IMG/VR virus record: IMGVR_UViG_3300024270_000041
Direction: 5' to 3' (one strand)
DNA: 56,521 bases
DNA from: an uncultured virus (IMG/VR IMGVR_UViG_3300024270_000041)
Lineage: Duplodnaviria > Heunggongvirae > Uroviricota > Caudoviricetes
The notes under the pieces were generated by a model. That model ran no database searches. It was not told the origin of the DNA and worked only from the letters and a program-made list of their open reading frames with translations. This document shows, piece by piece, positions 4,746 through 28,880 of the stretch. The position numbers were made by a program, and so were the translations under genes. How positions within the stretch are numbered: the first letter of the stretch is position 1; each line of letters starts with the position of its first letter.

Positions 4746-6017
4746 ATGCAGGAAACTAATGAAGCACGCGGGCTGACAGAGCCCGTTAATACACAAATGG
4801 AGGAGACCGAGACAGCTACCGCTGCTATGTGTCTCGATGACCCGAAAGATATTCCAACGGTTGAGTTGACTACCACAAATGATAAGCTGGTAATCACTCA
4901 TGATAATCCGCTGGTTGAAGCGGTTCTCAGAAAAGCTTATGAGAACGGTATTCCAGTTGAAGTAGTTAAGGATGTCGAAGACGTCGTTAACGAATTCAGC
5001 AAGAAGACTAAGATTGAGCTCGTTATGGCTAAGAGAGAAATCGAAAATTATAATGGTCTCAAGGAACTTGCAGCAGGACTTGCGGAATCAAGTAAGTCGA
5101 TGTCAGCAACATCCAAGGCACTTACGGATTTCATTGAACCGAATTTCAATTTCGATGAAAACGAGAACGAATCCGACGCTGCCGAGAGTATTGAAGAGCC
5201 GGAATCTGAACCTGAGGACGAACTTGCTAACGAGATTGATGGTATGTATAAGACTCTTGAGAACGATATTGCAATCGCTAATATTGCATACGATGTCGTT
5301 TATCAGAAGTATATGGAAGACCATCCAAATACCACCGTATATGATGACCTTCTTGAGAAGCTTCTGAAGGATAAGGCAACTCTTGAGTCCGGTAATAATA
5401 TTAATGCACCAAAGCTCATTGCATGCATCGATGATGTTATTGCTTGTATGCAGAAGAATGACCTCGAGGCACTCCTCGTACCATTCCATACAAAGACTGA
5501 TAATCAGAAGAGACTTCGTATTCTTGCGAAGGAACTTATCAATGTCAAGCGTCCAGTTTACCGTGACCTCGAGACTATCGGTATTACTCAGGAGCATATC
5601 GTGAAGTTTATTAACTTCTTTATTACCGAGGCAAACTTCCGTGAGACATATGCAACGGGACCTATTGGTTTCCCAGATACACGTCTTATTCCAAACATCT
5701 GTCTCTTCTTCTTATATCATCTCTGTAAGATTATTACTAACTCTCGTAAGAGAGCTACATATGAGACTCTTAAGTATCGTCTCGCATTCATGCATGTCAT
5801 TGACGTAGTGGATACGTATCCATCCACTACCAAGACATTCACTGAGAACAGATTCATTGGTGATGCAACTAATGAGAATGCTGAGCCTACAGAGCTCTCA
5901 ATTGCTCGTGCAAAGGTATATGATACATTCGTACCACTTCTTATGAAGTACTTTGGTGCGATGAATGACCAGACATTGGTTAAGTATTCAGTAGCACAGG
6001 CAAGAAAGACAAAGTAA
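4746..6017 (+). CDS. hypothetical protein
   Basis: 423-aa ORF with AGGAGG RBS, ending at the repeated hairpin. Confidence 0.8.
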   Translation: MQETNEARGLTEPVNTQMEETETATAAMCLDDPKDIPTVELTTTNDKLVITHDNPLVEAVLRKAYENGIPVEVVKDVEDVVNEFSKKTKIELVMAKREIENYNGLKELAAGLAESSKSMSATSKALTDFIEPNFNFDENENESDAAESIEEPESEPEDELANEIDGMYKTLENDIAIANIAYDVVYQKYMEDHPNTTVYDDLLEKLLKDKATLESGNNINAPKLIACIDDVIACMQKNDLEALLVPFHTKTDNQKRLRILAKELINVKRPVYRDLETIGITQEHIVKFINFFITEANFRETYATGPIGFPDTRLIPNICLFFLYHLCKIITNSRKRATYETLKYRLAFMHVIDVVDTYPSTTKTFTENRFIGDATNENAEPTELSIARAKVYDTFVPLLMKYFGAMNDQTLVKYSVAQARKTK

Positions 6018-6021
6018 AAAT

Positions 6022-6056
6022 ATTATCCCATTACCCTTCAAGGGTAATGGGATAAT
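6022..6056. terminator. repeated hairpin ATCCCATTACC..GGTAATGGGAT, copy 2
   Basis: Perfect inverted repeat after a stop codon. Confidence 0.75.
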
Positions 6057-6084
6057 TTATGCCGTGATTTTAGAGATAAGTGCA

Positions 6085-6094
6085 TATATATTAT
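6085..6094 (+). promoter_or_regulatory. early-type promoter motif TATATATTAT
   Basis: One mismatch to TATATATCAT, at about the same spacing from the hairpin as the copy at 680. Confidence 0.6.
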
Positions 6095-6177
6095 ATTAGT
6101 AGCAATAAAGGAAGTATCGCTAAGTTATAGGGCACTTAGCGACGTATAAAATAGCCCTTCATACTGGAGGTAATAGT

Positions 6178-6465
6178 ATGAAAGAATCCGTTGTTACAAG
6201 AACCGTAATATTTGTCAATCCAGAAAGATTGACATTCGACACATCTATCAAAGATGTGTTGAAAAAGACAGGAAACGCGTTTGTGCAGTTACTTGATAAC
6301 GAAGATAACGTAGCTGATACGGCGCGTGCGATTCGAGCAAACCTCGCAGATCATACATCTGCAGGAAAGAGCCCGGTTAATGTTGTGCTTTCCGGATTCG
6401 ACTACGACCCGGAAATTCTCGAGGCAATCGAGAAAAATGGTTGTAAGCTTATCTGGGCTTGCTAA
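6178..6465 (+). CDS. hypothetical protein
   Basis: 95-aa ORF with GGAGG RBS, its own promoter motif and a terminator. Confidence 0.8.
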   Translation: MKESVVTRTVIFVNPERLTFDTSIKDVLKKTGNAFVQLLDNEDNVADTARAIRANLADHTSAGKSPVNVVLSGFDYDPEILEAIEKNGCKLIWAC

Positions 6466-6471
6466 ATAATT

Positions 6472-6538
6472 AAACAGCACCGCCAAGTAATCATACTTGG
6501 CGGTTTTGGAATTACCTTGGCGGTGCTGTTTTTTTTTT
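6472..6538. terminator. terminator between convergent genes, with a duplicated 3' arm
   Basis: AAACAGCACCGCCAAG pairs with CTTGGCGGTGCTGTTT, followed by a long T-run. Confidence 0.75.
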
Positions 6539-7550
6539 ATACTTCCTTGTAGATATAATGTCTCTGAAGGTGGTCAACTGCGGTATTTGCACGATAGTTA
6601 ATCTCGAATTGGATATCATTCGGATTTTCAGGAACTGGGTAATCCGGGATAGGTTCACCATCCTGGTCTACCGCATATACATTCCAGTCCTCAGTATTAG
6701 TATTAAACTCGGCGACTAAATCGACATGCTGGCCTTCATACTTAAGATACTTATCGCCATCATTACCGGCTCTCTTACTGTCATAATCTTCAGAGTACTG
6801 CTCGCCGATATCATCCATTGAATCATTATCATCTTCATCATAATCTGCACCGGAGAATTCTTCACGTCCTCCAACATCTCCGATGAGGTGCTGGTGACCC
6901 ATACCGAAGAGCTGCTGCATGATATTGTTAGTAATAAGAGATTCATCTGTACCACCAACATTCTTATCGAGCTTAGCTTTAAGCTCAATCTTAGTCTTTG
7001 CGATATTATTGAGTTCTTTGAGTACACTCACTCTTGCAGTATGAAGTGATGTCTTCTGCCCGGCAAGTTCGGCCGTCTTAATAGCAGAACGGTTAAATCC
7101 TGTACCGCGGAGATTCTCGAGGTCTTTCTCGAGCTTAGCACTATCCTTATGCATTTCTGCGAGGATGTTACGAAGCTCCTGCTCATTAGCAGCAAACGCT
7201 CTGTCAATCTCGTTTTCACTTTCAGATACGGCGTTAGTTCGTGCATATTTACGACCCATACCGATGAGTGCAGACTTGAGTTCAAGATCCTCATCATCTA
7301 CGTCGATAGTATCAATCAATGCATCGAAGTCCTCTTCCTGAAGACCTCCATACTTAGCAAGTTTCTTATCAAGGTCATCCAGAAGTAACTTAGGGTCGTC
7401 AATGCTGGTATGTGATTCTGAATCGAGAAACTTTGGAAGTTTCTTTGATTTTTTATCTTTCTTAGGTGTAACTACTTCGACTTCAGGAGCATCTCCTGAG
7501 AGGGATGATGATGCAACGAGTTGTCGAAGTCCATCCAATGTACTACTCAT
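6537..7550 (-). CDS. hypothetical coiled-coil protein
   Basis: Probable start MSSTLDG at 7550 after AAGGAGG; late motif upstream. Confidence 0.8.
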   Translation of the reverse strand: MSSTLDGLRQLVASSSLSGDAPEVEVVTPKKDKKSKKLPKFLDSESHTSIDDPKLLLDDLDKKLAKYGGLQEEDFDALIDTIDVDDEDLELKSALIGMGRKYARTNAVSESENEIDRAFAANEQELRNILAEMHKDSAKLEKDLENLRGTGFNRSAIKTAELAGQKTSLHTARVSVLKELNNIAKTKIELKAKLDKNVGGTDESLITNNIMQQLFGMGHQHLIGDVGGREEFSGADYDEDDNDSMDDIGEQYSEDYDSKRAGNDGDKYLKYEGQHVDLVAEFNTNTEDWNVYAVDQDGEPIPDYPVPENPNDIQFEINYRANTAVDHLQRHYIYKEV

Positions 7551-7580
7551 GATTGATTCCTCCTTATGAAATAAAATCAT

Positions 7581-7592
7581 TAGACGGTTGTT
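7581..7592 (-). promoter_or_regulatory. late-type promoter AACA-N6-TA
   Basis: Minus strand AACA accgtc TA. Confidence 0.65.
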
Positions 7593-7624
7593 TTCGGATG
7601 CTATTTCGTCAGAAGTTATGAGAG

Positions 7625-7634
7625 TATATATCAT
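7625..7634 (+). promoter_or_regulatory. early-type promoter motif TATATATCAT (DNA polymerase operon)
   Basis: Exact motif. Confidence 0.65.
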
Positions 7635-7694
7635 AGTGCAGTATAATACGGTTGCCACTGAACCGGTAAAAGTGGCTTGGCGAAAGGAGTACTT

Positions 7695-8465
7695 ATGATT
7701 AGAGTTATTAAGAATGCGTCTGAATTAGAGACGAATATTCCCGGTATACGCAGCGAGAATGCTAAACGGTATTATTGTGATTATGCCATGGATCCATGGT
7801 CATCATCAGAGTTTATGTCCAGTGAAGAAATTCAGATTGGAGATAATGAATATCAGATACGTTTTATATCTGAGATAGAATTCACGAATTACGGAATCGA
7901 TATAAACGATATAACCGAGATATATACTGAATTGGTGTTGTTGAAGAGGGCTAAGACCAGGGGTCAGGATCACTTATATTTAGTGGTACGAGATAAGCAA
8001 ACAGACATACCCATTGGTGTAGTACTGCTCAACGTATTTTTATCACAGGAGGATGAGGATGGTATACCTGATTTCGACGCATTGATTGATGTCAGTATCG
8101 GTACTTGCTGTGAAGCATATGTCGTACGCGAAATAGACAATATTCGCACATTAATGGGTAAAGGTATGATAAACGAGGCAGCAGTGGTAGTGGCATATAA
8201 TATGGTATTAGCATTGAAAGAACTGCATGTTAAACTGCGACTTGCTGATAATGATAAAGAATTCGATATTAATTATGAGCCGACAATCGACGACCTTACG
8301 GAATTCGTATCCATATATCAGGGATTCCTTAAGTCTGAACTTAAGAGGTTGGGTATCATTACGGCTCCCACCCAATATGAGAAGGACATCATAAATCTTG
8401 TCGATAATATCATGAATGCAGTCAATGATTCAGAATATGTAAAATGGAGGAAGAAACATCCATGA
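7695..8465 (+). CDS. hypothetical protein
   Basis: ATG at 7695 after AAAGGAG; its stop overlaps the polymerase start (ATGA). Confidence 0.75.
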   Translation: MIRVIKNASELETNIPGIRSENAKRYYCDYAMDPWSSSEFMSSEEIQIGDNEYQIRFISEIEFTNYGIDINDITEIYTELVLLKRAKTRGQDHLYLVVRDKQTDIPIGVVLLNVFLSQEDEDGIPDFDALIDVSIGTCCEAYVVREIDNIRTLMGKGMINEAAVVVAYNMVLALKELHVKLRLADNDKEFDINYEPTIDDLTEFVSIYQGFLKSELKRLGIITAPTQYEKDIINLVDNIMNAVNDSEYVKWRKKHP

Positions 8466-10342
8466 GATTTTTAGGAAATGAAGCTGAAGGGCGTCACGTG
8501 ATGCCCTTATCAATCATTTATGATAACCCACGAGAGGCATCAGATATGTTGATGATTCTTTATAAGGACATCGATACCGGTGAGAAGTTCGTCAAGAATA
8601 TCGAGAATCCTGAAATTGACATCTATATTGTCAAGGAGCAATATAGAAACCAGAGCCCAGCTGAAAATCCGCTTAATATGGACGGTTCATATCGTCCCGA
8701 CTTCTATATGAAAGACCAGTGCGATGTGGTTAGGGTTAAGTATCGTAAGCGAAAGTATGCGGCTGCGAAAATACTCGGTATATCACCGGAAGATGTTGAT
8801 GCTTCACCATATGTCGGCGGAACCGATATGGATATACGTCATTGGTACTTTGTAGAATTCTTACATGAATACAGTAATGATTTGCCAAAGCCTATTAGCG
8901 TAGGATACTACGATATCGAAGCCGATACCAGAGGTTATGGTACTAATGAATTCGGTGATAATTATGGTAAATTCCCAATTACTGCAATCACTTATATATC
9001 AGACGTTCGAAACCAGGTATATGTATTCGTCCTCAATTGTCCGGAGTTCGGAAGAATGGATGAGATTATAAATAATACCGAAGGTTTGCGTCGAGAGATG
9101 CACGAAGAGTTTGATGAGAAGTTCGGTACCATGGAGTATAACATCGTTATATTCGATAAAGAAATCGAAATGATAAACGCGTTTTGGGCATTGGTAAAGG
9201 CTGTTGAAGACGACTTCACCCTCGCGTGGAACGCACCATTCGATATCGGTAACCTGACATATCGACCAGCCGAACTGGGATATGACCCAGTATCAATTAT
9301 TCATGACCCACGATTTGCTCGTAAGGTCGTGATATTCAATGAAGACAGAGCGACATTCGTTGCACATAAGAAGAGACATAAGATAACCTATACATTACCT
9401 ACTATCCTGGACGACCACATGCGTATATATTCCGGTGTCAGATCAGCTAGAGGTAAGCTTCCTAGTACAGCACTCGATAAAGTTGCTAAACGTGAGAAGA
9501 TAGGTGGAAAGAAGACATATGAGGGTGACATCAACCAGTTCATGCTCACTAACTTCTGGGATTATATTATCTACAACGTTAACGACGTTCATTTGATGAG
9601 AGCTATCAATAATAAGGTCAATGATACTGGAGACATTTATTCACGTATGCTTAACTCAGGCGTGTCGAATGATGAGGTATTCGTATCCACTACTATCTGG
9701 GCACAGTATATCAAGAATGACCTCGAATCAAAACGTGGTAGATTCTTGGCTAATAATAAGAATAAATTCCTGGCAAAGACCCAAGAAATTATCGAGTATG
9801 GCTTCGACAGTGATGCTGTTGATGAAGATGATGGAGACGATGAGGATGAATCCGATGAATGTCTCCAGGAGGTGCTCGGGGCTATTGCAGACCAGCAGAA
9901 CCTTATCGATGAGAAGACGGGTAAGAAGAAGAAATTCGCAGGTGCTATAGTACTCGATACCCGTCGTACCAGATATACAGGTACTAAGATTAATGGTATG
10001 GAGTGCAACTTCGTACATCGACATGCCATAGACCAGGATATCACATCCGAGTATCCTACAGCAATCACTATCAGTAACCAGTCAAATGATACATTCGTTG
10101 GAAAGATTTATGTCGACGATGCCGATGAAATCAAACTCCCGTTCTATGAGCAATATAGCTTCTTGGATAATAAAGACGCTAGCGAATATAAGTGCAACAA
10201 GGCTGCACTTATGCTCGAGACAGCTATCCAGGGCGACTATATGATGGTAGGCGAGATAGCATTAGGATTACCTAAGTTGGCTGACTTAGAGAAGATGGTT
10301 ATAAACATGGCCGGAGATAAACTTACGAAGGGAGATAAATAA
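8462..10342 (+). CDS. family B DNA polymerase, N-terminal subunit (3'-5' exonuclease + motif A) of a split enzyme
   Basis: ExoI YYDIEAD, ExoII AWNAPFD, ExoIII YNVND, FAGAIV and motif A-like DQDITSEYP; motifs B and C are absent. Confidence 0.88.
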   Translation: MRFLGNEAEGRHVMPLSIIYDNPREASDMLMILYKDIDTGEKFVKNIENPEIDIYIVKEQYRNQSPAENPLNMDGSYRPDFYMKDQCDVVRVKYRKRKYAAAKILGISPEDVDASPYVGGTDMDIRHWYFVEFLHEYSNDLPKPISVGYYDIEADTRGYGTNEFGDNYGKFPITAITYISDVRNQVYVFVLNCPEFGRMDEIINNTEGLRREMHEEFDEKFGTMEYNIVIFDKEIEMINAFWALVKAVEDDFTLAWNAPFDIGNLTYRPAELGYDPVSIIHDPRFARKVVIFNEDRATFVAHKKRHKITYTLPTILDDHMRIYSGVRSARGKLPSTALDKVAKREKIGGKKTYEGDINQFMLTNFWDYIIYNVNDVHLMRAINNKVNDTGDIYSRMLNSGVSNDEVFVSTTIWAQYIKNDLESKRGRFLANNKNKFLAKTQEIIEYGFDSDAVDEDDGDDEDESDECLQEVLGAIADQQNLIDEKTGKKKKFAGAIVLDTRRTRYTGTKINGMECNFVHRHAIDQDITSEYPTAITISNQSNDTFVGKIYVDDADEIKLPFYEQYSFLDNKDASEYKCNKAALMLETAIQGDYMMVGEIALGLPKLADLEKMVINMAGDKLTKGDK

Positions 10343-10344
10343 TC

Positions 10345-11034
10345 ATGGCATATAAGTTGACATTCCCACTTGATGAATTTAAGAAGATGAATTCGATGCT
10401 CACAGAGTACTACTCAGAGTATTTCATTGATGATAAATCAGGATTGATTATGGGTACAAGTTTGAACGAGTATGCGTTTAATATAGCTACCATATCTCCC
10501 GATCTTTTATCAAAGTTATCTCTGGGCTCAGTTCTTCTTCATCCTAATTACATGCGTAAGCAAGTGGGTGACCTTAAGAAGACAATGACATACGTGTACA
10601 ATGACAATGATGTATTCCGTGTGTATGAATTCGAGGATAAGATAAAAGATATACCAGATATGACCAAGGGCAAATTGGTAGTATCGTTAATTCATCATGA
10701 AGAGAACTCTATGGATGCAAATGCTATTCATATGCGAGATATTACCAACAGGATTAAGCCGTATGGCGAATATCTGAATCAGCATCTGGAATTCGAAGAT
10801 ATTCCACGACCATACTACATGTCTCAGTTTATAGCTAACGATATATTATCTCTGGAAGACGATGATGGTGGTCATCTTATAGTAACACGTCAGATGTTTC
10901 CAAAGTATCAAAGGGTTGATGGTATTTCGTGGACGTCCGTCAATCTAGATGATGAGTTCCGATTGGGTATATTTGAGACAAAACACCCCATTCTAACGAT
11001 GTATACATTCGTCAAGTATCTACGAGGCATTTAA
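10345..11034 (+). CDS. hypothetical protein in the polymerase operon
   Basis: 229-aa ORF directly after the polymerase gene. Confidence 0.8.
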   Translation: MAYKLTFPLDEFKKMNSMLTEYYSEYFIDDKSGLIMGTSLNEYAFNIATISPDLLSKLSLGSVLLHPNYMRKQVGDLKKTMTYVYNDNDVFRVYEFEDKIKDIPDMTKGKLVVSLIHHEENSMDANAIHMRDITNRIKPYGEYLNQHLEFEDIPRPYYMSQFIANDILSLEDDDGGHLIVTRQMFPKYQRVDGISWTSVNLDDEFRLGIFETKHPILTMYTFVKYLRGI

Positions 11035-11039
11035 TTAAT

Positions 11040-11066
11040 ATCCCATTACCATTATGGTAATGGGAT
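11040..11066. terminator. repeated hairpin ATCCCATTACC..GGTAATGGGAT, copy 3
   Basis: Perfect inverted repeat after a stop codon. Confidence 0.75.
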
Positions 11067-11105
11067 GAACTATTCAAGCATGACCCATAACAGGAGGTAA
11101 AAGTT

Positions 11106-11360
11106 ATGGCAAATATTTATATATGTACAGACCGCCAGCCTGTGAGTGAAGAATTCTCTAAGAGCGTCGCTGGCGTATCTCTTTTACTCAAAAGGAGTAA
11201 AGTTGATGGTAAGCTCGCTGTTATCAGCGCAGCGAGCGGTGAGATCCTTTGGGTGACGACGGCCATCCAGCATGAGGAACGAGACGTACCTGGTACTGAT
11301 CTCGTTATCGTGACGGCGAATTCCAAATATACATTTAGAAAGATTGGTGAAACAGTATAA
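11106..11360 (+). CDS. hypothetical protein
   Basis: 84-aa ORF with AGGAGG RBS. Confidence 0.8.
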   Translation: MANIYICTDRQPVSEEFSKSVAGVSLLLKRSKVDGKLAVISAASGEILWVTTAIQHEERDVPGTDLVIVTANSKYTFRKIGETV

Positions 11361-11375
11361 TCTCACCAATCTCCT

Positions 11376-11403
11376 CACCCGCCAATTGGTGGGTGATTTT
11401 TTT
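11376..11403 (+). terminator. intrinsic terminator
   Basis: TCACCCGCCA/TGGTGGGTGA stem followed by a T-run. Confidence 0.75.
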
Positions 11404-11430
11404 GCTATAAATCGATACAAAGAGTATAAT
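11402..11430 (+). promoter_or_regulatory. host sigmaA/sigma70-type promoter
   Basis: TTGCTA (11402-07), 17-bp spacer, TATAAT (11425-30). Confidence 0.7.
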
Positions 11431-11435
11431 GATAT

Positions 11436-12106
11436 CACTATGGATACCGTAACCTATATTAGTATGTGTGGTACATGTACATGGTTATAATCCGAACGAT
11501 ACCATTATATCAAAACTTCCAACGGGTATAGTGGTAGTGTATACATCTTATTCAGAGATATCAGATGTATACTTACGTTTTAACATATGATTGGTAGTAC
11601 GAGGTTCGTTACTACCATTACAATATCGATATCTCATCGTCATATGTTAGTAGTGTTTGGCTGCCAAACTATAAAGCCTATCATTCTTATTTTCTTAAAG
11701 AACACAATTTGTCATCTCTGTCCCTGACTAACTAAGTTCATCCTCTACTCCGGCATATTCAGATGCCATTGAGACTCGATACGTTGATGCCGGTTAGTAT
11801 ATGCTCGCATGCAGTGATTATATCATACGAACACTATTCGGTGATAGCTATCATATAAGACTCCAATGAGCTTCGTAATGAGTAGATTGACGAGACTGGA
11901 TTTAATTCTAGTAGCGTATCGAAAGTTATGCGGTTATAGATGAGCATTGATAGTTAAGCTGCTTTGGCTAGTAGTGCGATTATACACAGATATGGAGTAT
12001 AAAATATCGCTATCATTTTATCCTCTCATTAGTGAGTAGAGTTGAGCTTCTACGGATGGGTTAGAGTTATAATACCAGGTATACCATTAATGGTATACCT
12101 GGTATT
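11436..12106 (+). ncRNA. candidate large structured non-coding RNA (~670 nt)
   Basis: No ORF of 60 aa or more in the ORF track; many local and long-range helices; promoter upstream and a perfect terminal hairpin downstream. Confidence 0.65.
12071..12106. terminator. perfect 36-bp palindrome (terminator-like)
   Basis: AATACCAGGTATACCA-TTAA-TGGTATACCTGGTATT. Confidence 0.75.
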
Positions 12107-12135
12107 TGTCCCCGACTTAGCTTAGAATAGCGAAA

Positions 12136-12147
12136 AACAGCCATATA
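12136..12147 (+). promoter_or_regulatory. late-type promoter AACA-N6-TA
   Basis: AACA gccata TA before the giant tail gene. Confidence 0.65.
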
Positions 12148-12190
12148 ACCTATATAACCAATTTCAATAAGAAAGAGGTGGACTATAAGT

Positions 12191-15100
12191 ATGGCTTCTA
12201 ATAGAAGTAAAAGCAAAGTATTACAGAATGCCGAGAAGGCATTTAAGTACTCAGCAGTACCGGCTATTACGAGTAAAGTACCGTATATGACTGGTACTGC
12301 ACAGAGTGCTATATCAGTCGCGAAGGACCTTCGCGACTGGACAATCAGAAATAACCCGTTTAGAGCAGTGAATGGTAACAAAGACCCATTGATTAGACAG
12401 ATCGCCACTGCAACCGCAAATGCTGTTAAATCGGCAAAATTGGATCTTAAGTCTGGGGACTTGACATTTAGGAATCTAAATAAGGCTGTTAGAGATTTCG
12501 TAGGCGAAGATTCATTGTTGGACGGCTTTGATAATCTGGACATCGATTTCGGTTCCGACCTCGGGGACTCATTATTTTCGAATTCGGGACAGGACGACCA
12601 GACCTCTGATATTACCACCGCATCTGCAATGATGGCAGTGGGCGACACGTTGTCACGAACTCAGGCGGTTACCACAGAGGCGATGATTGGTGCTGTAGAA
12701 CATTCGACAGAAAGAATCACTAAAACCCAAATGGTTATGACTGATACTGCAGTAACACGACTAATATCCAGTAACATGACTATAGCCGCCAGGACTTCGA
12801 CTCAATTAGGTACGATCTCCGAAGACATAAAAGTTGTGAATAAAAATCTCTCGCTACTGGTTGAGCAGTCGAACAGTTTCTCTTCATTTATCAACCAGTC
12901 ACAGAGATATATGGAGCATACCGAGCAGACATTGAACGATATTAAAGCATTATTGGAGGCCAGTCATTCTCAGGGTAAGAATGACGGATATGGTGGTAGT
13001 TATAATGACGGATTTATGTCTGGACACTTCGACATCAAAAAATATATCCACCATATATTCAATAATACATCCTCTGGTATCATTGCATCTCAGGTAATCG
13101 GTACCACTATGAAAGCTCTTAAGATGGAACTGCCCTCATTTATTGATGAGATGAATGCTTTCTCCATCGGAGATTTGAATCCTCTCAAGATGGGTATTGA
13201 GAAGCTTATCCCTGCAATTGGAAGAATTGCTGATTTGGATAAAACTTTCGAGCGGTCGATTAAGATGTTCATGGCCAGACTTGCAGAAGGAGAATACGGA
13301 GGATTCCTCAATGGCTTAGGTGTAGAGGGATTCGGCATGAGAGAGCGTAACCGTGTTATTTACGACTCGAGATATTACGAAAAAGGTAATATGCAGTGGA
13401 ACGGTATGGCTCAGCGCGCTTTGATGGAGGTTATCCCAGGATACTTATCTAGTATGGAAGGCTATCTCAAACAGATAGCTGAGAATACATATAAAGGTAA
13501 AGATAGGTATGCACTTAACACATCGTCGCTCCGTCACTTCGATTATGATCTTGGGCAATTTGCAACTTTGAGTGATATACGCGAAAGAACTAAGAAAGAA
13601 TTAACATCATCTCTTCAGAGTTCATATGATAATTTCGTTGAGATGACAGAAAAAATCACCAATGGCTCGGACGAGCTGAACCAGGAGCTCACCAATTATC
13701 TGCGAAAGATTAATAGCTCAGAGAACGATAGTAAGATTTCACGTAAAGAATGGATGAACGAATTTAAGGCTATCGTTGGAAAACATCGTAAAGATGGTAT
13801 TACTGACGACCAGATAATGAAGGCATATGATGCATTGGTATGGGCTCGAGAGCAGTCCCTAGACGAAAGGAACCGAATTCGTACGGCAGCTGCACGAAGA
13901 GAATCCAGTGCATTTTATCTTGGCGATGAGCTCAATACCATGACCCCAGACCTGGTATATAAGGGACTGAAGGAGATTAAGCAGGATCGATATAATTCGC
14001 TATCTGAAAATGATAAGAAAGAGGCCGACCGTCAGAAACGAAACGAAGAACGGAGGAAGGGCTTCTTCGAAAAAACAGTAGCCAAATTGGGATTAACTGA
14101 TGATGCTAAAGCAATAAAGGAAATGTTTAGCCATGGTGGTCCTATTAATAGAGGAGTGGACTTCGTATCTGATAAGCTTCAGGGAGTCTTACTGAATCTT
14201 ATATACGGTGGCCTCAAGTCCTATGATGTCGGAAGTCAGAATATCCCTAATGACCAGGTAGCTAATATTCACAAGGGTGAAATGATTATCCCTAAGGATG
14301 TCGCCGACCAGATTCGTGCCGGTAATTTTGACAATGCGCAGGTTAAGGAATGGCTTAATATCACAGCAGGTTCTGTTGAGAATAGCACATCCGTACTATC
14401 GTCCATTCAGAGCATGTTCGTCGGTAACTCTAAGACCAAGTCTAAGACTCGTAAAGCTATGGGTGCTATGGTCGAATACGCCGATGACTATTATAAGGTA
14501 GCTATCGATGCTGAAGCTATCAAGGATGGCGACCTCAGAGGTATCTGGGTATCCATGCTCGAAAACATGGCTAACCAGACAGCTATTCTCGCACATAATG
14601 CCGAAAGAGATGCAGGATTCGATGATAAGGACGGTCGTAGTGACCTTTCTAAGAGAATTCTCGGTGAGAAGGATAAGAATGGCCTCTATAAAGGCACTAT
14701 GTTTAGTCAATATGCTAACATAGGTCTTGACTTTAAGAATGCCATCAGACATGCCATGTATGGCGAAGAGTATATTACGTCAGAAGGCGTTAAGGTCGCT
14801 AAATCGGATGATACAGTTCTCTCTACTTTATCTAAGGGTATGAAGAAAGCTGGTGATACAGCTCTTTCATATATCTTTGGAGAAGATTATAAAAATACCA
14901 AACAGTTCAAGGCAGTATCAAAAGGCTATAGTGAACTCAAGGCAGGTATTACTGGTAAAGCATCAGACGGAGTTCAGCTGACTCCGGATGAAGAAAAGGC
15001 TGTCGAAGAAGCACTTCAGCAGACAGCTGATAAGGGACTTGAACTTAATAAGAAACTCATTGGTCACGTTAAGGGTGGCCTGTTAGGTGCAATTACCGTA

Positions 15101-18100
15101 GGTGGTATTGGTCTTATGGGTGGCGGTGGTGTAGTGCCAATGCTTCTCGGAGCAGGTGGACCTATTGGTGGTGCAATTATCGGTGCGGGTCTTTCTATTC
15201 TCACTAGAAACGAATCCTTCATGGATAAGATGTTCGGTGAGATGAAGGATGGTGAACGTGTCGGTGGCGTAATCTCCAAGGAGATGCAGGAAAGATGGAA
15301 AGACCTCGGTAGTAAGCTCCTTGGTCCGGCAGTACTTGGTGCAGCTGGTTCATTTATCTTCCCTAAACTTACTAGAGGTATACTTGGACCGGTTGGTTCA
15401 TTTATGCTTGGTACTGGACCTATCGCAGGCGCTGCACTTGGTATAGGTGCATCTCTCATCATGAAGAGCCAGCCAGTGCAGGATTTGCTCTACGGTGAAG
15501 AGGGTAAAGGTGGTAATACCGGATTAGTTGGTAGTGTTAAGAACGCTGCAAAGGATTTCTGGAATAAGAATAAGCAGCATGCGGGTGCTATGGGACTTGG
15601 AGGTATCGGTGGTGCTCTCCTAGGTCTCAAGGGTGCTGGTGCATTAGGACTTGGTGGATTCGGTTTAGTCGGTAGCATTGTGGGCATGTCTATCCTCGGT
15701 GCATCATTCGGCCTTAAAGCCACATCTGATAAGTTTAAAGACTTCCTCTTTGGTTCCAGAAAGTTTAAGAGAGATAAGAATGGAAATCTCGTTCCAGACG
15801 GACGTGATGGTGATGGCCTTATCGGTAAGATTTCTCGTAAGTTCATTACTAGTGTCATGACACCTGCTCGAGTATTCGCACGTTCCATTTCACGTAACTT
15901 CACAGAGTGGATTCGATATGATGTTGCACATCAGCTCAAGTCTGCATTTGAACCATTTACCCTTGCTATCAAGGGTGGCGTCCAGGGTATTGCTGACGGC
16001 ATGCATGCCGTTACCGATAAACTCATGGACCTCGCTAAGAAAATCACTAACCCGATTAAGAAAATCGTCGGTGGGCTTCTTAAATTTGCTGGTAAGACAG
16101 TAATGGGCGGTCTTAAGACAGGTGCATCTATTGCCGGTGGTGTAATATCTGCACCTCTTAAAGTATTAGGACACTTTGGTCGTAGATTCTCCAAGAAATA
16201 CGATCCAACAGTTGCTGCTAATAATAAGAAATTCCGTTTTGGATATACCGATGCGAGTGGTAAAAAGCATCGAGGATTCTGGAACCCTCTTCAGAGGCTT
16301 GCTGATGCAAGGGATGCGTTCCTCGATAGCGATGGGGGCTTCTTTGACGCTCTTGCTGCGGGTGGTCATATGCTCAACCCATTCACTGCATATGCTGATG
16401 CTAAATATCAGTACTCCAAGGATACGGGATATAATAATGCTGCATTCTTAGGAGGCTTCTTCGGTGCAGCTGGTCAGAAGCATCGACAGATTAAGAAGGC
16501 TAATAGACGTAAAGATAAAATGGAGAGCAGGATTGCCGATTGGACAGCAGAGTGGGCAAAGAAGGACAACTGGAACGATAAGGTTATCCTCAATAAGAAG
16601 GAACTCAATGCACGTAATAGCCGTCTCAGAAAGATAATGGGTAAGGACTACGATAAAGTCCTTGATAGATTCGGTAATAAGAGCGGTTCTCTTACCAGTG
16701 AAGAGATGATTCAGTTCATGTACGACCCATTTGGTAAGAAGAAAAGCGAAAAGGATGCTCAGGCTAATACAGCTAAAAAGGCAAATACATTCCTTCAGGA
16801 TATCAAGCATATCGCATACGAAATACTCCAGTTCGTCTCTGGTGGCAAACCAAAAGGCGCCCCTTTATCAGGACCAGTTGCTAAGATTGGTAATGCGTTG
16901 GCTCCTAAAGGTGGTTCCAAGAGAAAACAGTCCAGAAATAAGGGCGCTGTCGACAGTAGCATGTACGACTTCATGAAGCAAGCAAAAAGTAGAGGCTTCG
17001 GCAGTATTAGTGCAATTGCCAGTGCTACTGGTATAGATGTAAACGACCTCAAAAATTTCCTTGCTGGAAATCGTGACGCGATTAGTGGTAAAGCCAGACG
17101 ATCGATGTTTAAACAGATGGGTTATATCGACACATCAACGTTCGGTGGTAAAGTAAAGAAAGCATTTACAACTCAGCATGCACTTGCTAAATATATAACC
17201 GACGGTCAATATCGTAAATCGGTAAATCAAAAACTTGAAAGTAAATCCAACGTGTTTAAATATGCATTGAATGCTGGATACCGTAAGAGTTTACATCAGC
17301 AGTATAATGTTACGAGTAGTAAGAGTCTCCTCGATTGCGTAATAGATGCTGGTTATTTCTATGGCATTAAGCAGGATAAGAAGGTCGATTATAGAAAATT
17401 ATCAGCTGATACAGGAATCGACCCCGACAAACTGAAGAACCTCCTTGAGGGTCGAGAAGATGACTTGAAGGATGATGAGAGGACTATATTATATGATAAG
17501 GTAGGGTACGTCGGTGATAAGTTCCAGGCCGGTAAACTTATCAAGAACATGATAGGAACTAAGGTTAAGAATAAAGTCAATTCGATAAAAACCACCCTAT
17601 ATAATAAGACACAGCCATTACGTAATGCCGCTAAGAAAGTCCAGAGTGGAATCGGCGTAATTAAAGGCAAGATCGCTCCTCTTCAAGATAAGGGTAAGGA
17701 ACTGTTTAAACAAGCATCAGAAGCTGCGAAGTTTAAGCTCGACAATAAGATGACCAGTAAACAGAAAGAATTCATGCATAAATATCTCACACCATATGAG
17801 ATAAAGATATTCAAGCAACTGTCTATATCTGAGCGTAATAACATAATGAGATTGTGGGCTACTGATGATGGTCGCTCTGCAATAGCAGCATTGCAGCAAC
17901 ATGGCAAGGAGCTTAAGAAAAAGACAGATGCCAATCGTAAGAAGCTCGGTCGTAATGTAGCAATGACTGATGAAGAAAAAGCTACATTTGAATGGCTCAA
18001 GGTCAACGCTAAGAAATCTAAATTAGAGCCAGATGTACAGAAGACATGTCTTAAGGTATACCGTAAGATGACATCTACCGAAAGGGCAGAAATTGAGGTA

Positions 18101-21100
18101 TATCGTAAAAACAAAGACGTTGTGGGAGCATTCACATATCTTAAAGACCATGCAGGAAAGATTAAATCGTTTGCTGAACGAGTTAAAGGCGCTGCGGGCG
18201 CTCTAAAGGCAGGTGCGTCCACGATAGCTGGTAAAGCCGCTGCGGGCGCATCCTCTATATTCGGTGCATTATTTGGAACAACAGGAGGTCTCAAATCCCT
18301 CGCTGGTATAGCGATAGGTGCAGGCGTCATGTTCCTCTTTAATAAATTCCCAGGAATTATGGAGAGTATCAAGACTATTATTGGTAATATCAAGGATTGG
18401 TTCATGGAAACTGCATGGCCATTTATTACTGATAAGATAGTTCCGGCTGCCAAGAAGATCTTTGAAGGAATCGGAACTGTAGTAGAGAAAATTTTCAACT
18501 TCATTGCCAACCCGGAAGAAGAGGGTGCTGCACTTTCTTCAAACTGGTTTACAGGAATGGATAAATCCGCAGAACAGTTGAAGGCTGAATCTGATACAGC
18601 TGCGAAGTATGGTTTATCAACTACAGAAGAAATGCTTAATTATGCGACTGGAGACCATGGAATATGGACTAGTGACATTGGTGATGGTGGTCTTGCAGAA
18701 ATCGTTGGTAAAAAGGCGGGTTCTAAGTATACAGCTAAGGATGGACTTATTGCAGCATATGTAGTTATCGGTAATGAGTACATGTTATACAATAACCCAT
18801 TTATAGCACCGACAGTCGAGCAGTTGTCAGCATTTATCGAAGATCCTAAAATCTTAAAAGCCGTTAAGAAGTTCTATAAAGAAATTGCAACACAACGTGG
18901 AATTAAACCGAAGAAGTATGATGATACATCGGCTTCCGATAGAAAAGCTGCTCTTCAGCAAGCTGTACAGTATCTGGAAGGTAAGTATGGTGGTCATAGA
19001 AACGTTCAAATCAACATGAATAACGCCGCTGGTATTACTATGGAACAGGCTGCTGCTAATGCAGCCGCAGAAGCATCAGGTAGTGTCGGCTCAGGCCACT
19101 TCATGCAGACTGACCCAAGATGGGCAAATGCTAGATATGCAAATGCTGGTCGTGGTAATTTCTCCACTATGGGTAATGGTGGATGTGGACCTACTGCACT
19201 TGCTAATGCGGCAATGAGCCAGGGTGTATCCACTAATCCTATGGCAGTAGCGCGTCTCTCCAGAAACGGCGGATATGCAGTAGGTGGGGGTACATCTGCT
19301 GGTCTATTCACTAACGGTGCTCGAAGACTTGGTCTTCAGTCTACAGCAATTGGAGCAGGCTCAATTAAGCGAGCACTTAGTAATGGTAACAGTGTCGTAT
19401 TTGCTGGAAAGGGTAATGGCCTCTATACTAGAGCTGGACATATTATGTCTGCTCGTGGTATCGATAGACACGGAAATGTTATCGTTGATGACCCAATGAG
19501 ACGCAATTCGGTAAGCGTCCCACTATCGACTCTTGGTAGAGGTATGACTCATGCATGGTCTATTGGACGTGGCGGTGAGACATATACTGATAACAAGGGT
19601 AATGTTTATGAGAAGATAACCAGTTTTGACCAGCTTAGTGCTGCAGCTAAGAAGAAAGATCTTACTAACTACTCCGACCAGGACCTCGGTATGCTCATGG
19701 CTAAATGCCAGAATGGCGAAGCCGATATTAATATAGCAGAATTTTACTTCCTTACATCACAACGAGAGATCAATAGAAAGAATGGTCTTGCAGACATGAG
19801 CTCTATGGACTATCATATCTCACTGCGTGGTGACGATAGTATGTTATATAATAACGTGCTTATGTACAACCAGACTAACGAGAAATGGAAGGATAAATTC
19901 CTCGTATACACTAATGACACATCAACTATCGGTAATGCAGGATGTGTAGTTACTGCATTCGGCTCATTATTGGCCAACTTAACAGGACTCAACTATAGAC
20001 CTGACTTTATGACAAATGCCATTGCCGGAAAGACTCGTACTGGCAATAGCCTGATTACTATTCTGGGAAATAGTAGATCCCCAAGTATTTCCAATGCAAC
20101 GCCTCAAAGATTTCTCATTAATGGGCATACGCATGGCCAGGCAACTAACAGTGAGGCAATTTATCCGAACTGGTATGAGCCACATGAAGGACCTTTTATG
20201 GGTAGTATGGATTGGTCTACTGGAACGATGACGTATCATAGGAATAATGATGAGCTCAGGTTCCTCGATACTATCTCGTCTGGACCATTCGTTATCTACG
20301 GTGGTTCGATTTATAATAAGGATATGGATAAAGTTTCTACTTATGGAACTGAACCAGGCACATATGCATCATCAATCTCTGGTTATACTCATATGCATCC
20401 GTTCTATCGCCCATCTGATGGAAAGATGTATACTAACCACGCATACTTGGTAGTACCTAAAACATTTGGTGGAGCTTCATCCGTAGCTCAGCAGGAATAT
20501 TATCTGTATGACCCAGGAAGTGGCCAGCTTGAAAATCAGGGACGTGCATTATCTTACAGTGCATTATTCTCACCACATGGTGGTGTACAGTCAGTATTCG
20601 GATTTTCCGGTTTGGCTAGTACTCCATTTGGCGGAGTTCTCGGTAAAGAACCTGCCGTGGAAGACCTCAATTGGTGGCAAAGTATGTATAATGCTGACGA
20701 TCTTGCGGAACTTTATAGGACATCGTCCGAGCATACTCGTAGGAAGTATCAGTATGAAAATTCATGGACTGGCACAGATACATCAACCGATGAGTCCTCA
20801 GACGACAGTCTTCTGACAAAAATTATGAATGCTCTCAGTGGTCTTGGTGATATTGCGATGGGACTACTGGGTAAAATATTTGGTGGTAAGGGAGACCTTC
20901 CAACCATGACCGATTATGCCAACCAGTCAGTTTATAACAACGGTGGAAGCGGAAGCGGTGGTAGTGGTGGATCCGGTTACGTTAGCAACGACGGTTCAAT
21001 CTACTATAAGGGTGAGAAGGTCAGCAGTCGTGCTCTCACGATGGACCTCTCTAAATACTCGGACTATGACATTGCTATGTTACAGCAGCGAATTATGAAG

Positions 21101-22381: not shown

Positions 22382-22385
22382 AAAT

Positions 22386-22417
22386 AATGAGGATAAGCCA
22401 ATTGGCTTATCCTCATT
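22386..22417. terminator. hairpin terminator
   Basis: AATGAGGATAAGCCA/TGGCTTATCCTCATT. Confidence 0.75.
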
Positions 22418-22430
22418 TTATCGTTCCGGT

Positions 22431-22442
22431 AACAACGCTTTA
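22431..22442 (+). promoter_or_regulatory. late-type promoter AACA-N6-TA
   Basis: AACA acgctt TA. Confidence 0.65.
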
Positions 22443-22469
22443 ATATGCTAATGAAAGAGGTGTATTTTT

Positions 22470-24434
22470 ATGGCAGACGAATCAGATATCAATGTTCGTC
22501 CTCTCTCGGAGGACGAACAATTTAAAATACAAATCACAAATGATGCCGCATCACACGGAGGTTCGGGTCTATCAGGATATAGTGCCCCGAACGAAAGATT
22601 GACGAACAGGACGCATACCTCTATTCCCGAGGGCACATATACTGTTACCGGTAGAAGTAACTATGATACGTCATGGGTATGTATAAGTGTAAACGGAAAA
22701 GATGTATGGATCAAGCTCAACGGCGGAGGATATATTGATGAGGATGGTACTCCATATTTTAATTCACAATATTATTCCGAGGAAGACCGTGATAAAGCAC
22801 TGAAAAGTGAACTTGATATACTTGGTACTATGAACTTTGAACAGTGGGCCACGGATAGTTATGATGAACGTACAGTAGGTGAGCTTGCGGGTAGTAATGA
22901 ATGTATAGTGTACACTACCAATCAAGATGGACAGACATACAATATGCGCGAGAAGGTTGTAATGCACAGTACAAGCAGTCAGATCGAATATGGATCGGTA
23001 TATGCACATTATATAACCTTGGCGACTAAAGCATATGGTGCACCACCGCAATGGACACCATATGTTGATCCTCGAGTAGGTGAACTGAGATTATCATCAA
23101 ACCACGTGTTTCTATTGGGAAGAAAGTACTTGGAGACCGTAATATCAGCTCCAACTATATTGTCGTTATGCCCAGGTGTAATCAAATATAACTCAGCTCT
23201 TGGTGAACTCTTAGGTGAGAATTTCGATAATATGACCCCTGAAATGTTTCAGGCAGACAGTTCGGGTAAAATTATCGAGTTCCAGCCGTGTTGGTACTCC
23301 GACGTAGAAGGTGGTAACCACGGTTACCTCAAATATGTAATTACGTTAAATAAAGCTGCGTTAATATCGATGAACCGTACAGAATATAAGACCGGTGAAA
23401 TTGAACTAAAGAAGCGAGAATTCCCTGGTTCATCGCAAACATATTACAATACTGAGCAAGTGTGGTATGATTGGAATAATTCGGACAATGACGTTACTCG
23501 CATATTCGGCGATACCGGGGGAGAGAACGCTATTTTAGACACCCTCTCAGCAATGGGTAATGCAGCAGCGGGATTTCTCGAATCCTTATATACATACAAA
23601 TACGTTCATTTTTACTGCTCTGGTAATAATTCAACACGTGAAAATTTCGAGACTAGTGTCAGAAGCTCTATGATTGAGGATCTCATAAACTCATCGGTAG
23701 GCTCTGCAGTTAAGGATGTAGCGTATTTCATGGGTGGTATTATCGATGCCGATACTACACAGCAATTGGAAGAATGGGCCGATACCACATCTAAATCACT
23801 TGGCTCTCTCGGTAACCTTGTATCTATGGCGACCGAGGTATTTAAAGGTGCCCGATTAATATTCCCACAGATTGTCGATGACTGTACATTTGGTAGAGAT
23901 GCACAGTTTACAGTTAGATTTGTTGCAGGTTCATCAGATATTGAAGCAAGATATCTGATGAGATGTGAGTTTAATCATCTTCTCGCATTGGTATTGCCAA
24001 GACAGGTTAAAGGTAAGATTGATATGTATACTACACCATTTCTTGTACGCGGCCTTTGTAAGGGACGTTGGAACTGTGAGATGGGTGTTATAACAGGATT
24101 CCAGGTGACGTATGGTGGGCAGGATGATGGTGCATGGACGCAGGATTCACAGCCAACCGAAATTGAAGCTACGTTCTCAGTTACTCCATTATATTCTAAG
24201 CTTGTTATGTCTTCATTCGACGATGCATCGACATGGTTCCTGAGAAATACTGGTATGATTGAATATGTCATGACGAACTGTGGTGTTGACTTGAGATTAT
24301 CTCAGCTTGATATGAAGATGGAAATGGCCGTAGCTATGGGAGCTGAAGCTGCCAATCCCATGCGTATGTCAGACGGTATCATGGGTAAAATCTATAATCT
24401 GGCTCAACCGCTTCGTAACTTATTCAACTTCTAA
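22470..24434 (+). CDS. probable baseplate/tail structural protein
   Basis: 654 aa, next to the tape-measure-like gene, under a late motif; tube-like C-terminal segment (GVITGFQVTYG..PTEIEATFSV) and a possible SH3-like N-terminus. Confidence 0.6.
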   Translation: MADESDINVRPLSEDEQFKIQITNDAASHGGSGLSGYSAPNERLTNRTHTSIPEGTYTVTGRSNYDTSWVCISVNGKDVWIKLNGGGYIDEDGTPYFNSQYYSEEDRDKALKSELDILGTMNFEQWATDSYDERTVGELAGSNECIVYTTNQDGQTYNMREKVVMHSTSSQIEYGSVYAHYITLATKAYGAPPQWTPYVDPRVGELRLSSNHVFLLGRKYLETVISAPTILSLCPGVIKYNSALGELLGENFDNMTPEMFQADSSGKIIEFQPCWYSDVEGGNHGYLKYVITLNKAALISMNRTEYKTGEIELKKREFPGSSQTYYNTEQVWYDWNNSDNDVTRIFGDTGGENAILDTLSAMGNAAAGFLESLYTYKYVHFYCSGNNSTRENFETSVRSSMIEDLINSSVGSAVKDVAYFMGGIIDADTTQQLEEWADTTSKSLGSLGNLVSMATEVFKGARLIFPQIVDDCTFGRDAQFTVRFVAGSSDIEARYLMRCEFNHLLALVLPRQVKGKIDMYTTPFLVRGLCKGRWNCEMGVITGFQVTYGGQDDGAWTQDSQPTEIEATFSVTPLYSKLVMSSFDDASTWFLRNTGMIEYVMTNCGVDLRLSQLDMKMEMAVAMGAEAANPMRMSDGIMGKIYNLAQPLRNLFNF

Positions 24435-27830: not shown

Positions 27831-28880
27831 TTAGAACTTTATTGGTGATTCCAAGAAGAGCTCACCGAATCTATCGCTATCAATAGTAATGGTAGCTTGT
27901 CCTTCGTGTATATTGAATACCTGCCAATCTGCGGTAAACCCAGATATTCCGGCATGACCTCCACCATTACAGCACTCTCCAATAATGGTGGTGTCGTATT
28001 TATTAGAGTATAATGTATATGCCCATTCGCCTTTGTTGTTAATGTATTCCTTGATGGCGAAATCGTATTCTGTTTCCTTTCCGAATAACTCATAGTTGCC
28101 TACGTTAGTATTTACGATTACACAATTACCAAAACAACATCCTTTACCTGTCTTAGCACTCTTTACCGTGAGTACGAATCGTCTGGCATTTCTCATAATG
28201 TGTGGATAAAGAATATTATTTTCATACCATACGATTGATTTACCCTCGCTGATTATCTTATCCACAAAGTCTGTATCACCTTCAAGGCTATCCCATGCAC
28301 ATGGACTTTTAATCTTACTAAGATTCAATCTCAGAGAACCCTTAAAGAATTCAAGTGAACCCTGATATTCATTCTTATATAAGTCGTGGTCATCCACGAG
28401 CTTATAAACCGTAGGCATACCTCTCATCGTGAAGTACATATCCCATGCCAAGAATGTTGCAGAGTGATCAACGTTTACATGTTTATGAAATGCACATGTG
28501 CCATTAATCTTATACTTCGATAAGCACCTTTCGCTTGACAGGTGATGGTCAATATAATCGACTCCGACATGTGGAAGTGATGCAATATCGTCAATAATTG
28601 CGAAATCGTCTACCGTTGAGATTGCTACATCAACAATGATAACCTTCTTAAGGTTCTCGCATGCTGAAACTGCACCGGCGATATTCTTAGCAGCATTCTT
28701 AAGGCTGCTAATTGCCATTGGCCATATATAACGGTCACTATAACCGCATTCAATGAGATGCTTAAGCGCAATACGTGCAGCAGCTGCTCCGTCATTATCA
28801 TCATGAAATGCGATGATTGCTGTTGTATCACTATTAAGTGTATTCACTGGGTATTTTCTTATAAAGTCATATCTAGTCAT
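27831..28880 (-). CDS. DHH/DHHA1 phosphoesterase, copy 2
   Basis: HDDNDG, IVD, IDHH, GGGHAGISGF; probable start MTRYDF. Confidence 0.88.
   Translation of the reverse strand: MTRYDFIRKYPVNTLNSDTTAIIAFHDDNDGAAAARIALKHLIECGYSDRYIWPMAISSLKNAAKNIAGAVSACENLKKVIIVDVAISTVDDFAIIDDIASLPHVGVDYIDHHLSSERCLSKYKINGTCAFHKHVNVDHSATFLAWDMYFTMRGMPTVYKLVDDHDLYKNEYQGSLEFFKGSLRLNLSKIKSPCAWDSLEGDTDFVDKIISEGKSIVWYENNILYPHIMRNARRFVLTVKSAKTGKGCCFGNCVIVNTNVGNYELFGKETEYDFAIKEYINNKGEWAYTLYSNKYDTTIIGECCNGGGHAGISGFTADWQVFNIHEGQATITIDSDRFGELFLESPIKF

Follow-up and report, generated by a model that had tools for sequence, protein, structure and literature searches.

A candidate large non-coding RNA gene preceding the giant virion-protein gene of an uncultured gut phage

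What does a tailed phage hold in the one long part of its DNA that is free of open reading frames (ORFs)? We have addressed this question for a 56,521-nt stretch of DNA (IMG/VR record IMGVR_UViG_3300024270_000041), referred to throughout as the window, which is part of an uncultured tailed phage and in which a non-coding stretch at 11361-12190 is flanked by a gene for a protein of 84 amino acids (aa) upstream and by a 3396-aa gene, referred to as the giant gene, downstream. A preliminary description of this locus, made without database searches, had proposed a large structured RNA here, and its statement that this is the only long ORF-free stretch holds, as 11439-12066 is the sole gap of at least 400 nt without an ORF of at least 75 aa in the 56.5-kb window. 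On balance, we favour the reading that the segment from 11437 to approximately 12070-12106 on the + strand, which we call the unit, is a separate gene for a non-coding RNA of 610-670 nt, forming an uncatalogued orphan family in a phage with its own RNA-polymerase beta-like genes.

The best evidence for such an RNA, at the level of assembled contigs, comes from public sequencing runs. Twenty-four of these contain part of 11000-12600, and the runs with the stretch are labelled as feces or gut metagenomes, of animals according to their records. Two of the RNA runs are labelled as bovine gut. We aligned the contigs of two RNA runs from different studies (X22 and X23), together with those of two DNA runs (X11 and X12), to 10300-13300. 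X22 gave a contig of 482 nt at a depth of 15.7, covering 11443-11924, and X23 gave two contigs, 11470-11676 (206 nt) and 11707-12044 (338 nt), with depths of 4-5.3. All three align over their full length with 95-99% identity and no loose ends, and all lie inside 11443-12044; a fourth X22 record, a 37-nt partial match with loose ends, was disregarded. Cover is zero in both RNA runs on 10300-11410 and on 12118-13300, so that neither flanking gene is represented; the DNA runs cover 10300-11107 and 12077-12261 besides the unit. The left end of the X22 contig lies 6 nt downstream of the start that the TATAAT box described below would predict, and the X12 DNA contig continues leftward beyond 11375 into unlike sequence. 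Contamination of X22 by DNA is unlikely, because its variant resembles that of X12, with seven of the 12 listed X22 differences in common, and at a depth of 15.7 the flanks should then have matched as well. These data indicate that the unit is probably made as a discrete and abundant RNA, and they agree with the earlier proposal of a + strand non-coding RNA in that the RNA contigs from both studies lie only on 11443-12044. The features of the locus are as follows.

11106-11360, + strand: 84-aa gene, the last gene of the upstream operon (ORF list).
11375-11403, + strand: intrinsic terminator with a 9-bp stem (six G-C pairs; stem 11375-11396) followed by TTTTTTT (terminator scan and inverted-repeat search).
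11402-11430, + strand: promoter-like site TTGCTA-17-TATAAT, with 10 of 12 consensus matches and an expected start at ~11437.
11437-11657, + strand: predicted 5′ domain with the three best local hairpins (minimum free energy, MFE, fold; pair probabilities 0.91-0.98).
11443-12044, strand not given: span of the RNA-library contigs of X22 and X23.
11658-11733, + strand: A+U- and pyrimidine-rich linker, predicted to be weakly paired (MFE and centroid folds; unpaired run 11690-11697).
11734-12049, + strand: predicted 3′ domain with an uncertain interior fold (pair probability of the closing helix 0.96-1.00).
12071-12106, + strand: perfect 36-bp palindrome, followed by TGTCCCC with no clear U tract (inverted-repeat search).
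12107-12190, + strand: short 5′ untranslated region of the giant gene, with a strong ribosome-binding site, GAGGTGG (read from the sequence).
12191-22381, + strand: 3396-aa virion-type protein gene with a Peptidase_C39_2 domain (ORF list and family matches).

Between 14 and 27 stop codons fall in each of the six frames of 11361-12190. As TAA, TAG and TGA each occur in every frame, recoding cannot open the stretch, and an alternative genetic code was rejected for it. No ORF of more than 20 aa with a ribosome-binding site was found in the stretch, and seven ORF fragments from it gave nothing below an expectation value (E) of 0.04 against PHROGs. A hydrophobic ORF of exactly 20 aa on the - strand (12016-11954) has GAGGA upstream at a good spacing and a type I toxin-like look; there is no evidence of - strand transcription.

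The sequence punctuation that the preliminary description had read around the unit was found again in its essentials, i.e. the terminator upstream (stem 11375-11396 and T run), the TTGCTA-17-TATAAT box at 11402-11430 and the perfect 36-bp palindrome at 12071-12106. The box had, however, also been called the only clear sigmaA-type site, which is incorrect, as nine sigma-70-like sites score 10/12 in 5000-24000 and the total of 51 such sites compares with 54.3 +/- 7.2 expected from shuffles, i.e. there is no enrichment. The box alone consequently proves little, being one of nine such sites in 19 kb. TATAAT boxes also stand ~20-65 nt ahead of several other gene starts, e.g. at 3599, 7642, 25448, 30869 (- strand) and 37018 (- strand). 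The 36-bp palindrome, which is unchanged (100% kept) in the DNA runs X11 and X12, is likely to form the 3′ hairpin of the unit or to act as its terminator. The following 12107-12190, on which there are zero RNA contigs, is ~95% kept in the same runs.

Perfect palindromes of 27-36 bp also lie within ~5 nt after the stop codons of three genes (6022-6056, 11040-11066 and 22386-22417), and two of these four palindromes, that at 12071-12106 included in the count, have the word ATCCCATTACC in common. Long perfect palindromes are probably the usual transcript-end hairpins of this phage.

Single-sequence prediction gives the unit a two-domain fold. All ten helices listed in the preliminary description are present as complementarities at their positions, and six of the ten have a high ensemble probability, namely the palindrome, the three hairpins of the 5′ domain (H1, 11539-48/11563-72; H2, 11581-90/11640-49; H3, 11592-99/11610-17) and both halves of the long-range helix closing the 3′ domain, in which AAGTTCA..CTCTACTC (11734-50) pairs with GAGTAGAG.TGAGCTT (12034-49). 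The other four did not stand up in the ensemble: the three inner helices CGGCAT/ATGCCG, ATGCTC/GAGCAT and TGATAG/CTATCA and the one proposed pseudoknot have mean probabilities of at most 0.05 (0.05 for the pseudoknot), and CGGCAT at 11751-56 can pair with either of two partners. By an estimate from the sequence, chance is unlikely to account for the composite 15-bp long-range helix or for either of the two perfect 10-bp local inverted repeats. Folding energies were compared with those of shuffled sequence, which gave the full unit z values of -5.36 on the + strand and -2.68 on the - strand. The former overstates the structure of the body, because the palindrome supplies most of it. For 11437-12070, from which the palindrome is absent, the + strand has an MFE of -169.5 kcal/mol compared with -151.6 +/- 6.2 for 100 dinucleotide shuffles (z -2.91; none of 100 as low), and the - strand -142.1 compared with -135.0 +/- 6.7 (z -1.06; 12 of 100 as low). 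As a coding control, 22 sense-strand windows of 634 nt from the phage gave a mean z of -1.66 (sd 1.16).

We also examined how the unit varies among related phages, in which, as seen in the DNA runs, the stretch retains ~96-97% identity. Individual contig pieces depart from the window sequence by 1.9-5.6% within the unit, with just two indels, i.e. a 1-nt deletion at 11512 inside the RNA body (X23) and a 1-nt insertion behind 12109, just past the palindrome (X11). Third codon positions account for 22 of the 26 differences listed for the neighbouring 229-aa gene, which in X11 amounts to ~10% of such positions. The unit is thus about as conserved as coding sequence overall and ~3-fold more so than third positions, which speaks for constraint, although mosaic exchange could produce the same pattern. 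When placed on the + strand MFE fold, the 12 listed variant sites in the unit divide into five that are unpaired, five that are kept as G-U and two that break a pair, and all four A>T changes are at unpaired sites. Five of the seven variants at paired sites accordingly keep the pair as G-U on the + strand (11543 and 11565, both A>G in the hairpin 11539-72 and pair-keeping on the + strand only; 11806; 11828; 11863), where the - strand pair would break. Six of the 12 are compatible with the - strand fold, compared with 6.45 expected. This comparison, which covers the listed differences only, leans towards the + strand fold but has no statistical power, and no double compensatory change was present among them. 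Given the folding z values of -2.91 and -1.06 on the two strands and these G-U-keeping variants, the unit is probably transcribed from the + strand as a non-coding RNA.

Sharp mosaic boundaries lie around the unit, on the 11129-11340 side and from 12261 onward. X11 has 207 unrelated letters in place of the 84-aa gene (joint 11129/11340), and in both X11 and X12 the giant gene is unlike that of the window after 12261 (codon 24).

If the favoured reading is correct, the terminator at 11375-11403, which is seen in the sequence, would stop transcription of the upstream operon, and the -35/-10 box at 11402-11430 would start a new RNA near 11437, with which the start of the X22 contig at 11443 agrees. 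The predicted fold has a three-hairpin 5′ domain and a 3′ domain that the 15-bp long-range helix closes, with an unpaired, pyrimidine-rich linker between them, and the 36-bp hairpin may end or stabilize the RNA. The RNA would then accumulate far above the neighbouring messages, as the RNA contigs weakly suggest, and might act as RNA, in the manner of ROOL, GOLLD and the ICP1 transcript discussed below, our guess at its role being a scaffold or decoy binding host or phage factors. A wider proposal is distinctly more tentative: with this unit, a new class of large phage RNA would have its first member, transcribed early and to very high levels from a host-type promoter in a giant phage that for the rest depends on its own RNA polymerase. 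It would work purely as RNA, in the role of scaffold, cage or decoy suggested for ROOL and GOLLD, and the slot before the giant gene would serve as an ‘RNA-gene bay’ with unrelated large RNAs and tRNAs in different gut-phage lineages.

Several observations weigh against a separate RNA gene of this kind. The RNA contigs show neither strand, true ends nor level, the runs were found using this very stretch, and the ends of the X22 and X23 contigs disagree on the left (11443 and 11470) as on the right (11924 and 12044). The palindrome at 12071-12106 has no U tract. The folding excess is modest and within the coding spread of the phage, since two of the 22 coding control windows reach a z of -2.91 or below, and two 300-nt windows tiling the body give z values of only -1.75 and -0.37. 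Two of the variants, 11610 T>C (at a helix end, P 0.49) and 11845 T>C, break pairs, and the ten of 12 that are compatible with the + strand fold compare with an expectation of 8.0 if changes of these kinds were placed at random (P=0.12). The unit is, in addition, an orphan: the three IMG/VR contigs that carry it are identical with the window over 9 kb and no diverged copy was found in the collections searched, and in the relatives L007 and L008, whose giant protein has 56-57% identity in the best segment, the giant gene is preceded by ordinary small genes and by no such element. In these models the fold beats random sequence and favours the + strand, yet it appears as no outlier within the genome; of the earlier expectations about folding energy, an advantage over shuffled sequence was thus upheld on the + strand, but the wording ‘highly structured’ was too strong and is not demonstrated by energy. 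Should the structure fail, the element remains a conserved, transcribed non-coding unit beside the largest gene of the phage.

The main rival explanation, which we consider unlikely, is that the stretch is a long 5′ leader of the 3396-aa gene, whereby the promoter at 11402-11430 drives the giant gene, control is exercised in cis, either through masking of the start or through a palindrome at which transcription pauses or terminates, and the RNA that accumulates is the processed or terminated leader. Its position on the same strand and immediately upstream of the giant gene, and the want of a clear U tract after the palindrome, are as a leader would have them. The conserved block, moreover, extends from ~11340-11375 to 12261, taking in the ribosome-binding site and the first 24 codons as well as the RNA, so that the RNA and the start of the giant gene travel together. 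In a predicted fold of 11437-12240 the start region 12180-12193 pairs with 11480-11493 (P 0.95-1.0), and the two alternative partners of CGGCAT likewise suit a leader. However, a 12-of-14 pairing with the start region would be expected by chance in ~1 in 5 cases by our estimate, and neither RNA run has a contig on 12045-12261, although this part is ~95% kept in the DNA variants. L007 and L008 have the homologous gene without such a leader, and no riboswitch or leader family was matched.

It is improbable that the stretch is an element acting at the DNA level, either an origin of replication that follows the replication genes or a platform to which regulators bind, with transcription being incidental or providing a primer or R-loop. 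Such an element would fit the location directly downstream of the family-B DNA polymerase operon, the G+C content of 0.34-0.39 compared with ~0.40-0.45 nearby and the palindromic hexamers, GTATAC occurring four times where 0.27 is expected. Yet the arms of two hairpins account for all four GTATAC sites, and the total load of palindromic hexamers (18 compared with a window mean of 11.9 +/- 4.05) is in excess by only ~1.5 sd. Repeats amount to short two-copy matches, with no iterons or repeat families, the cumulative GC skew climbs straight across the region, and both the G-U-type variants and the difference in folding between the strands speak for an RNA. Replication primers of the ColE1 RNA II type are structured, promoter-driven non-coding RNAs of ~550 nt that lie beside replication functions, and the unit is similar in its predicted structure, its leading promoter and its proximity to replication functions; it differs in that no origin signature, antisense partner or RNase H-type site is recognizable in it, as checked by skew, repeats and palindromic hexamers only. 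Less probable still is a coding explanation, either a gene in decay or at least one small-protein gene, such as the 46-aa ORF at 11587-11727. The four variants in that ORF, three synonymous and one Ile>Leu, are of the kind that a coding sequence would show, but the ORF lacks a ribosome-binding site, a search of 1.84 billion representative proteins gave no homologue, and the stretch is equally conserved outside and inside it. The other ORFs take first- and second-position changes, in one case a 1-nt deletion, and none of the ORF fragments has a family match. The remaining cases, a - strand or incidental transcript or something else, are together about as improbable as an element acting at the DNA level.

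Having weighed these alternatives, we return to the reading of the unit as a separate RNA gene and to the question of whether it belongs to a catalogued family. A scan of the whole window with the Rfam 15 covariance models, as the preliminary description had suggested, gave no match at gathering score. At E values up to 10, 11000-12500 gave eight sub-threshold matches, mostly to eukaryotic families, with a lowest E of 0.13 and a highest score of 22.6 bits against a gathering score of 141. RNase P, tmRNA (transfer-messenger RNA), 6S, OLE, group I and II introns, riboswitches and T-boxes were rejected on these grounds. ROOL (RF03087) was likewise rejected, with no match at its gathering score of 99.1 bits in the window and none at E up to 10 in 11000-12500, as was GOLLD (RF01998), for which there was no covariance-model match even at E up to 10 in 11000-12500; membership of either class, even as the divergent member that had been suggested, is therefore not borne out. 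Records G001 and G002 (157 kb) were likewise free of ROOL matches at E up to 1, but as the control genomes in that search gave nothing either, the exclusion of ROOL rests on the scans of the window.

There are nevertheless large phage RNAs with which the unit can be compared. ROOL (~580 nt) and GOLLD (~800 nt) are presented, in the relevant parts of two reports, as non-coding, phage- or prophage-encoded and often abundant RNAs of unknown cellular role, ROOL having first been found in cow rumen data (PMC5737381; bioRxiv 10.1101/2024.12.08.627333). The unit resembles them in its similar size, in being phage-borne and in being seen in bovine-gut RNA data. As for placement, ROOL and GOLLD frequently lie beside transfer RNA (tRNA) genes in phages or prophages; the unit lies in a phage, among genes for terminase, portal, tail sheath and tail tube, but not adjacent to tRNA genes, of which the window has none. 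It differs further in having no covariance-model match, in being known from one phage lineage and in having a two-domain fold from single-sequence prediction rather than a covariation-backed multi-junction fold or pseudoknot. Vibrio phage ICP1, in the part of its report that concerns this locus, has an ~800-nt non-coding transcript from an ORF-less gap of ~1 kb between gp139 and gp140, which was measured by RNA-seq of infected cells and is the most abundant transcript of that lytic phage, with no tRNA nearby and no known function (PMC7567579). The unit is like it in the ORF-less gap, the large phage transcript and the lack of a nearby tRNA, and unlike it in that host and phage group differ and in that the unit is known from metatranscriptome contigs only. 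In sequence, the unit showed no likeness to any of 50,697 GenBank phage records (blastn, distant mode), and a description of this element was not found in the literature.

The search for homologues was also extended to the relatives of the giant protein. Scans of IMG/VR with three exact or degenerate patterns returned only three contigs, all identical, and the same three were the only relatives of the giant protein there. There was no second copy of the unit in the 157-kb record G002. BLAST against five metagenome-assembled genomes of Clostridia or Saccharibacteria and 399 genomes of one class gave only a 30-nt chance match (E 9.7e-4). The giant protein has 27 relatives, down to 23% identity, and 24 of their loci are in the metagenome collection. 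Comparison of the unit with these 24 loci by blastn (word size 7) and nhmmer showed no nucleotide likeness, the best blastn match (E 0.061) being in a coding region; the relatives P0002-P0005 (72-49% identity; ENA and Logan assemblies) lay outside this DNA comparison. Against GTDB genomes the giant protein gave only lysin-domain matches, tblastn of the neighbouring 229-aa protein against GenBank phages gave no match, and a pattern search found no late-promoter word common to the window and L007/L008.

Relatives with 56% best-segment identity have an ORF-poor gap of another kind, i.e. ~527 nt without ORFs of at least 75 aa (L008:2190-2715 and L009:838-1365), which lies ~1.5 kb upstream of the terminase gene and is unlike the unit.

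In two more distant clades of relatives, L017-L021 and L022-L028, two tRNA genes and then ~900 ORF-free bases precede a 167-aa gene and the giant gene. The ORF-free bases, a candidate RNA of ~900 nt, lie as follows.

L017:8046-8975, strand not given: ~900-nt RNA.
L021:8040-8972, strand not given: ~900-nt RNA.
L022:4943-5915, strand not given: ~900-nt RNA.
L018-L020 and L023-L028, strand not given: ~900-nt RNA in the matching stretches.

An alignment of eight sequences has 193 predicted pairs, of which 57 show pair-keeping changes on both sides (between the two clades). In the two most conserved domains 99-100% of cells pair, compared with 21-59% with slid partners, and each domain has three compensatory pairs. 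In Rfam there is only a sub-threshold match to RAGATH-36 (L017:8199-8334; 32.9 bits against a gathering score of 70). On one deep evolutionary contrast, this looks like a new large RNA beside tRNAs. Models of its 5′ domain (R1) and 3′ domain (R2) score 100-154 bits on all 11 loci of the L017 and L022 clades. On the whole window with filters off, R1 gave at best 13.8 bits (E 0.062) at 6420-6519 on the - strand, and 7.1 bits (E 7.9) in the region of the unit; R2 gave zero matches in that region and nothing on records G001 and G002, and an nhmmer profile of the ~900-nt RNA also missed the window. Since the R1 and R2 models and the profile all fail on the window, membership of the unit in this family was rejected. 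The two elements are alike in their slot before the giant gene, their similar length, the lack of ORFs and their absence from Rfam, and they differ in that tRNA neighbours and compensatory changes are seen with the ~900-nt RNA only. As the slot holds RNA genes in related phages, an RNA gene in the slot of the window becomes more plausible, by analogy only.

In these related phages the slot would host a pair of large non-coding elements that are unrelated to each other, compensatory changes being seen in one of the two, and the unit adds a candidate large phage RNA with direct, contig-level RNA evidence from the animal gut. Large phage non-coding RNAs such as ROOL, GOLLD and the ICP1 transcript are abundant and ornate, yet to our knowledge no function is known for any of them, and with each unrelated family that appears in a comparable location it becomes more pressing to ask why phages need such RNAs. 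A host-like promoter precedes the unit, yet the phage carries its own RNA-polymerase beta-like genes, which would allow a rifampicin test, given a host. That the phage encodes its own RNA polymerase, as the preliminary description had held, is supported by family matches of two adjacent proteins, of 708 aa (47104-49230, - strand) and 612 aa (49243-51081, - strand), to phrog_3015 ‘RNA polymerase beta subunit’ (E 2.3e-47) and phrog_2943 (E 1.2e-14) in PHROGs respectively; neither matched a Pfam family. By these matches, the phage appears to have split, highly diverged multisubunit-type polymerase genes resembling those of giant phages. The product of the 3396-aa gene, a virion-type protein with a Peptidase_C39_2 domain, is not an RNA polymerase.

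Family matches elsewhere in the window identify genes for the large terminase, a T4-type portal, tail sheath and tail tube, and further genes for a family-B DNA polymerase, an NAD ligase, an SbcC-like protein and a RusA-like protein; no Pfam or PHROGs family was matched by the 84-aa gene product, and tRNA and tmRNA genes number zero in the 56.5 kb. The longest record carrying the window sequence has 156,816 bases and is estimated to be 65% complete, from which the phage genome is probably well over 200 kb. A search for complementarity of the RNA to 43 translation-start regions gave no outlier, with a duplex method that permitted unrealistically long loops, and repeats elsewhere in the window, including those like diversity-generating retroelements, amounted to only a 17-nt match. 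Over 17 nt, positions 11849-11865 of the unit are perfectly complementary to the portal gene on its sense strand at 26218-26234 (blastn E 0.011 within the window), which could be chance; the natural variant 11863 C>T would retain this pairing as G-U. The genes of the window are on the + strand as far as 27779, and the site at which gene orientation switches is marked by tandem paralogous DHH-phosphoesterase-like genes on the - strand (27831-28910 and 28960-30114; phrog_4771, E ~1e-26 each).

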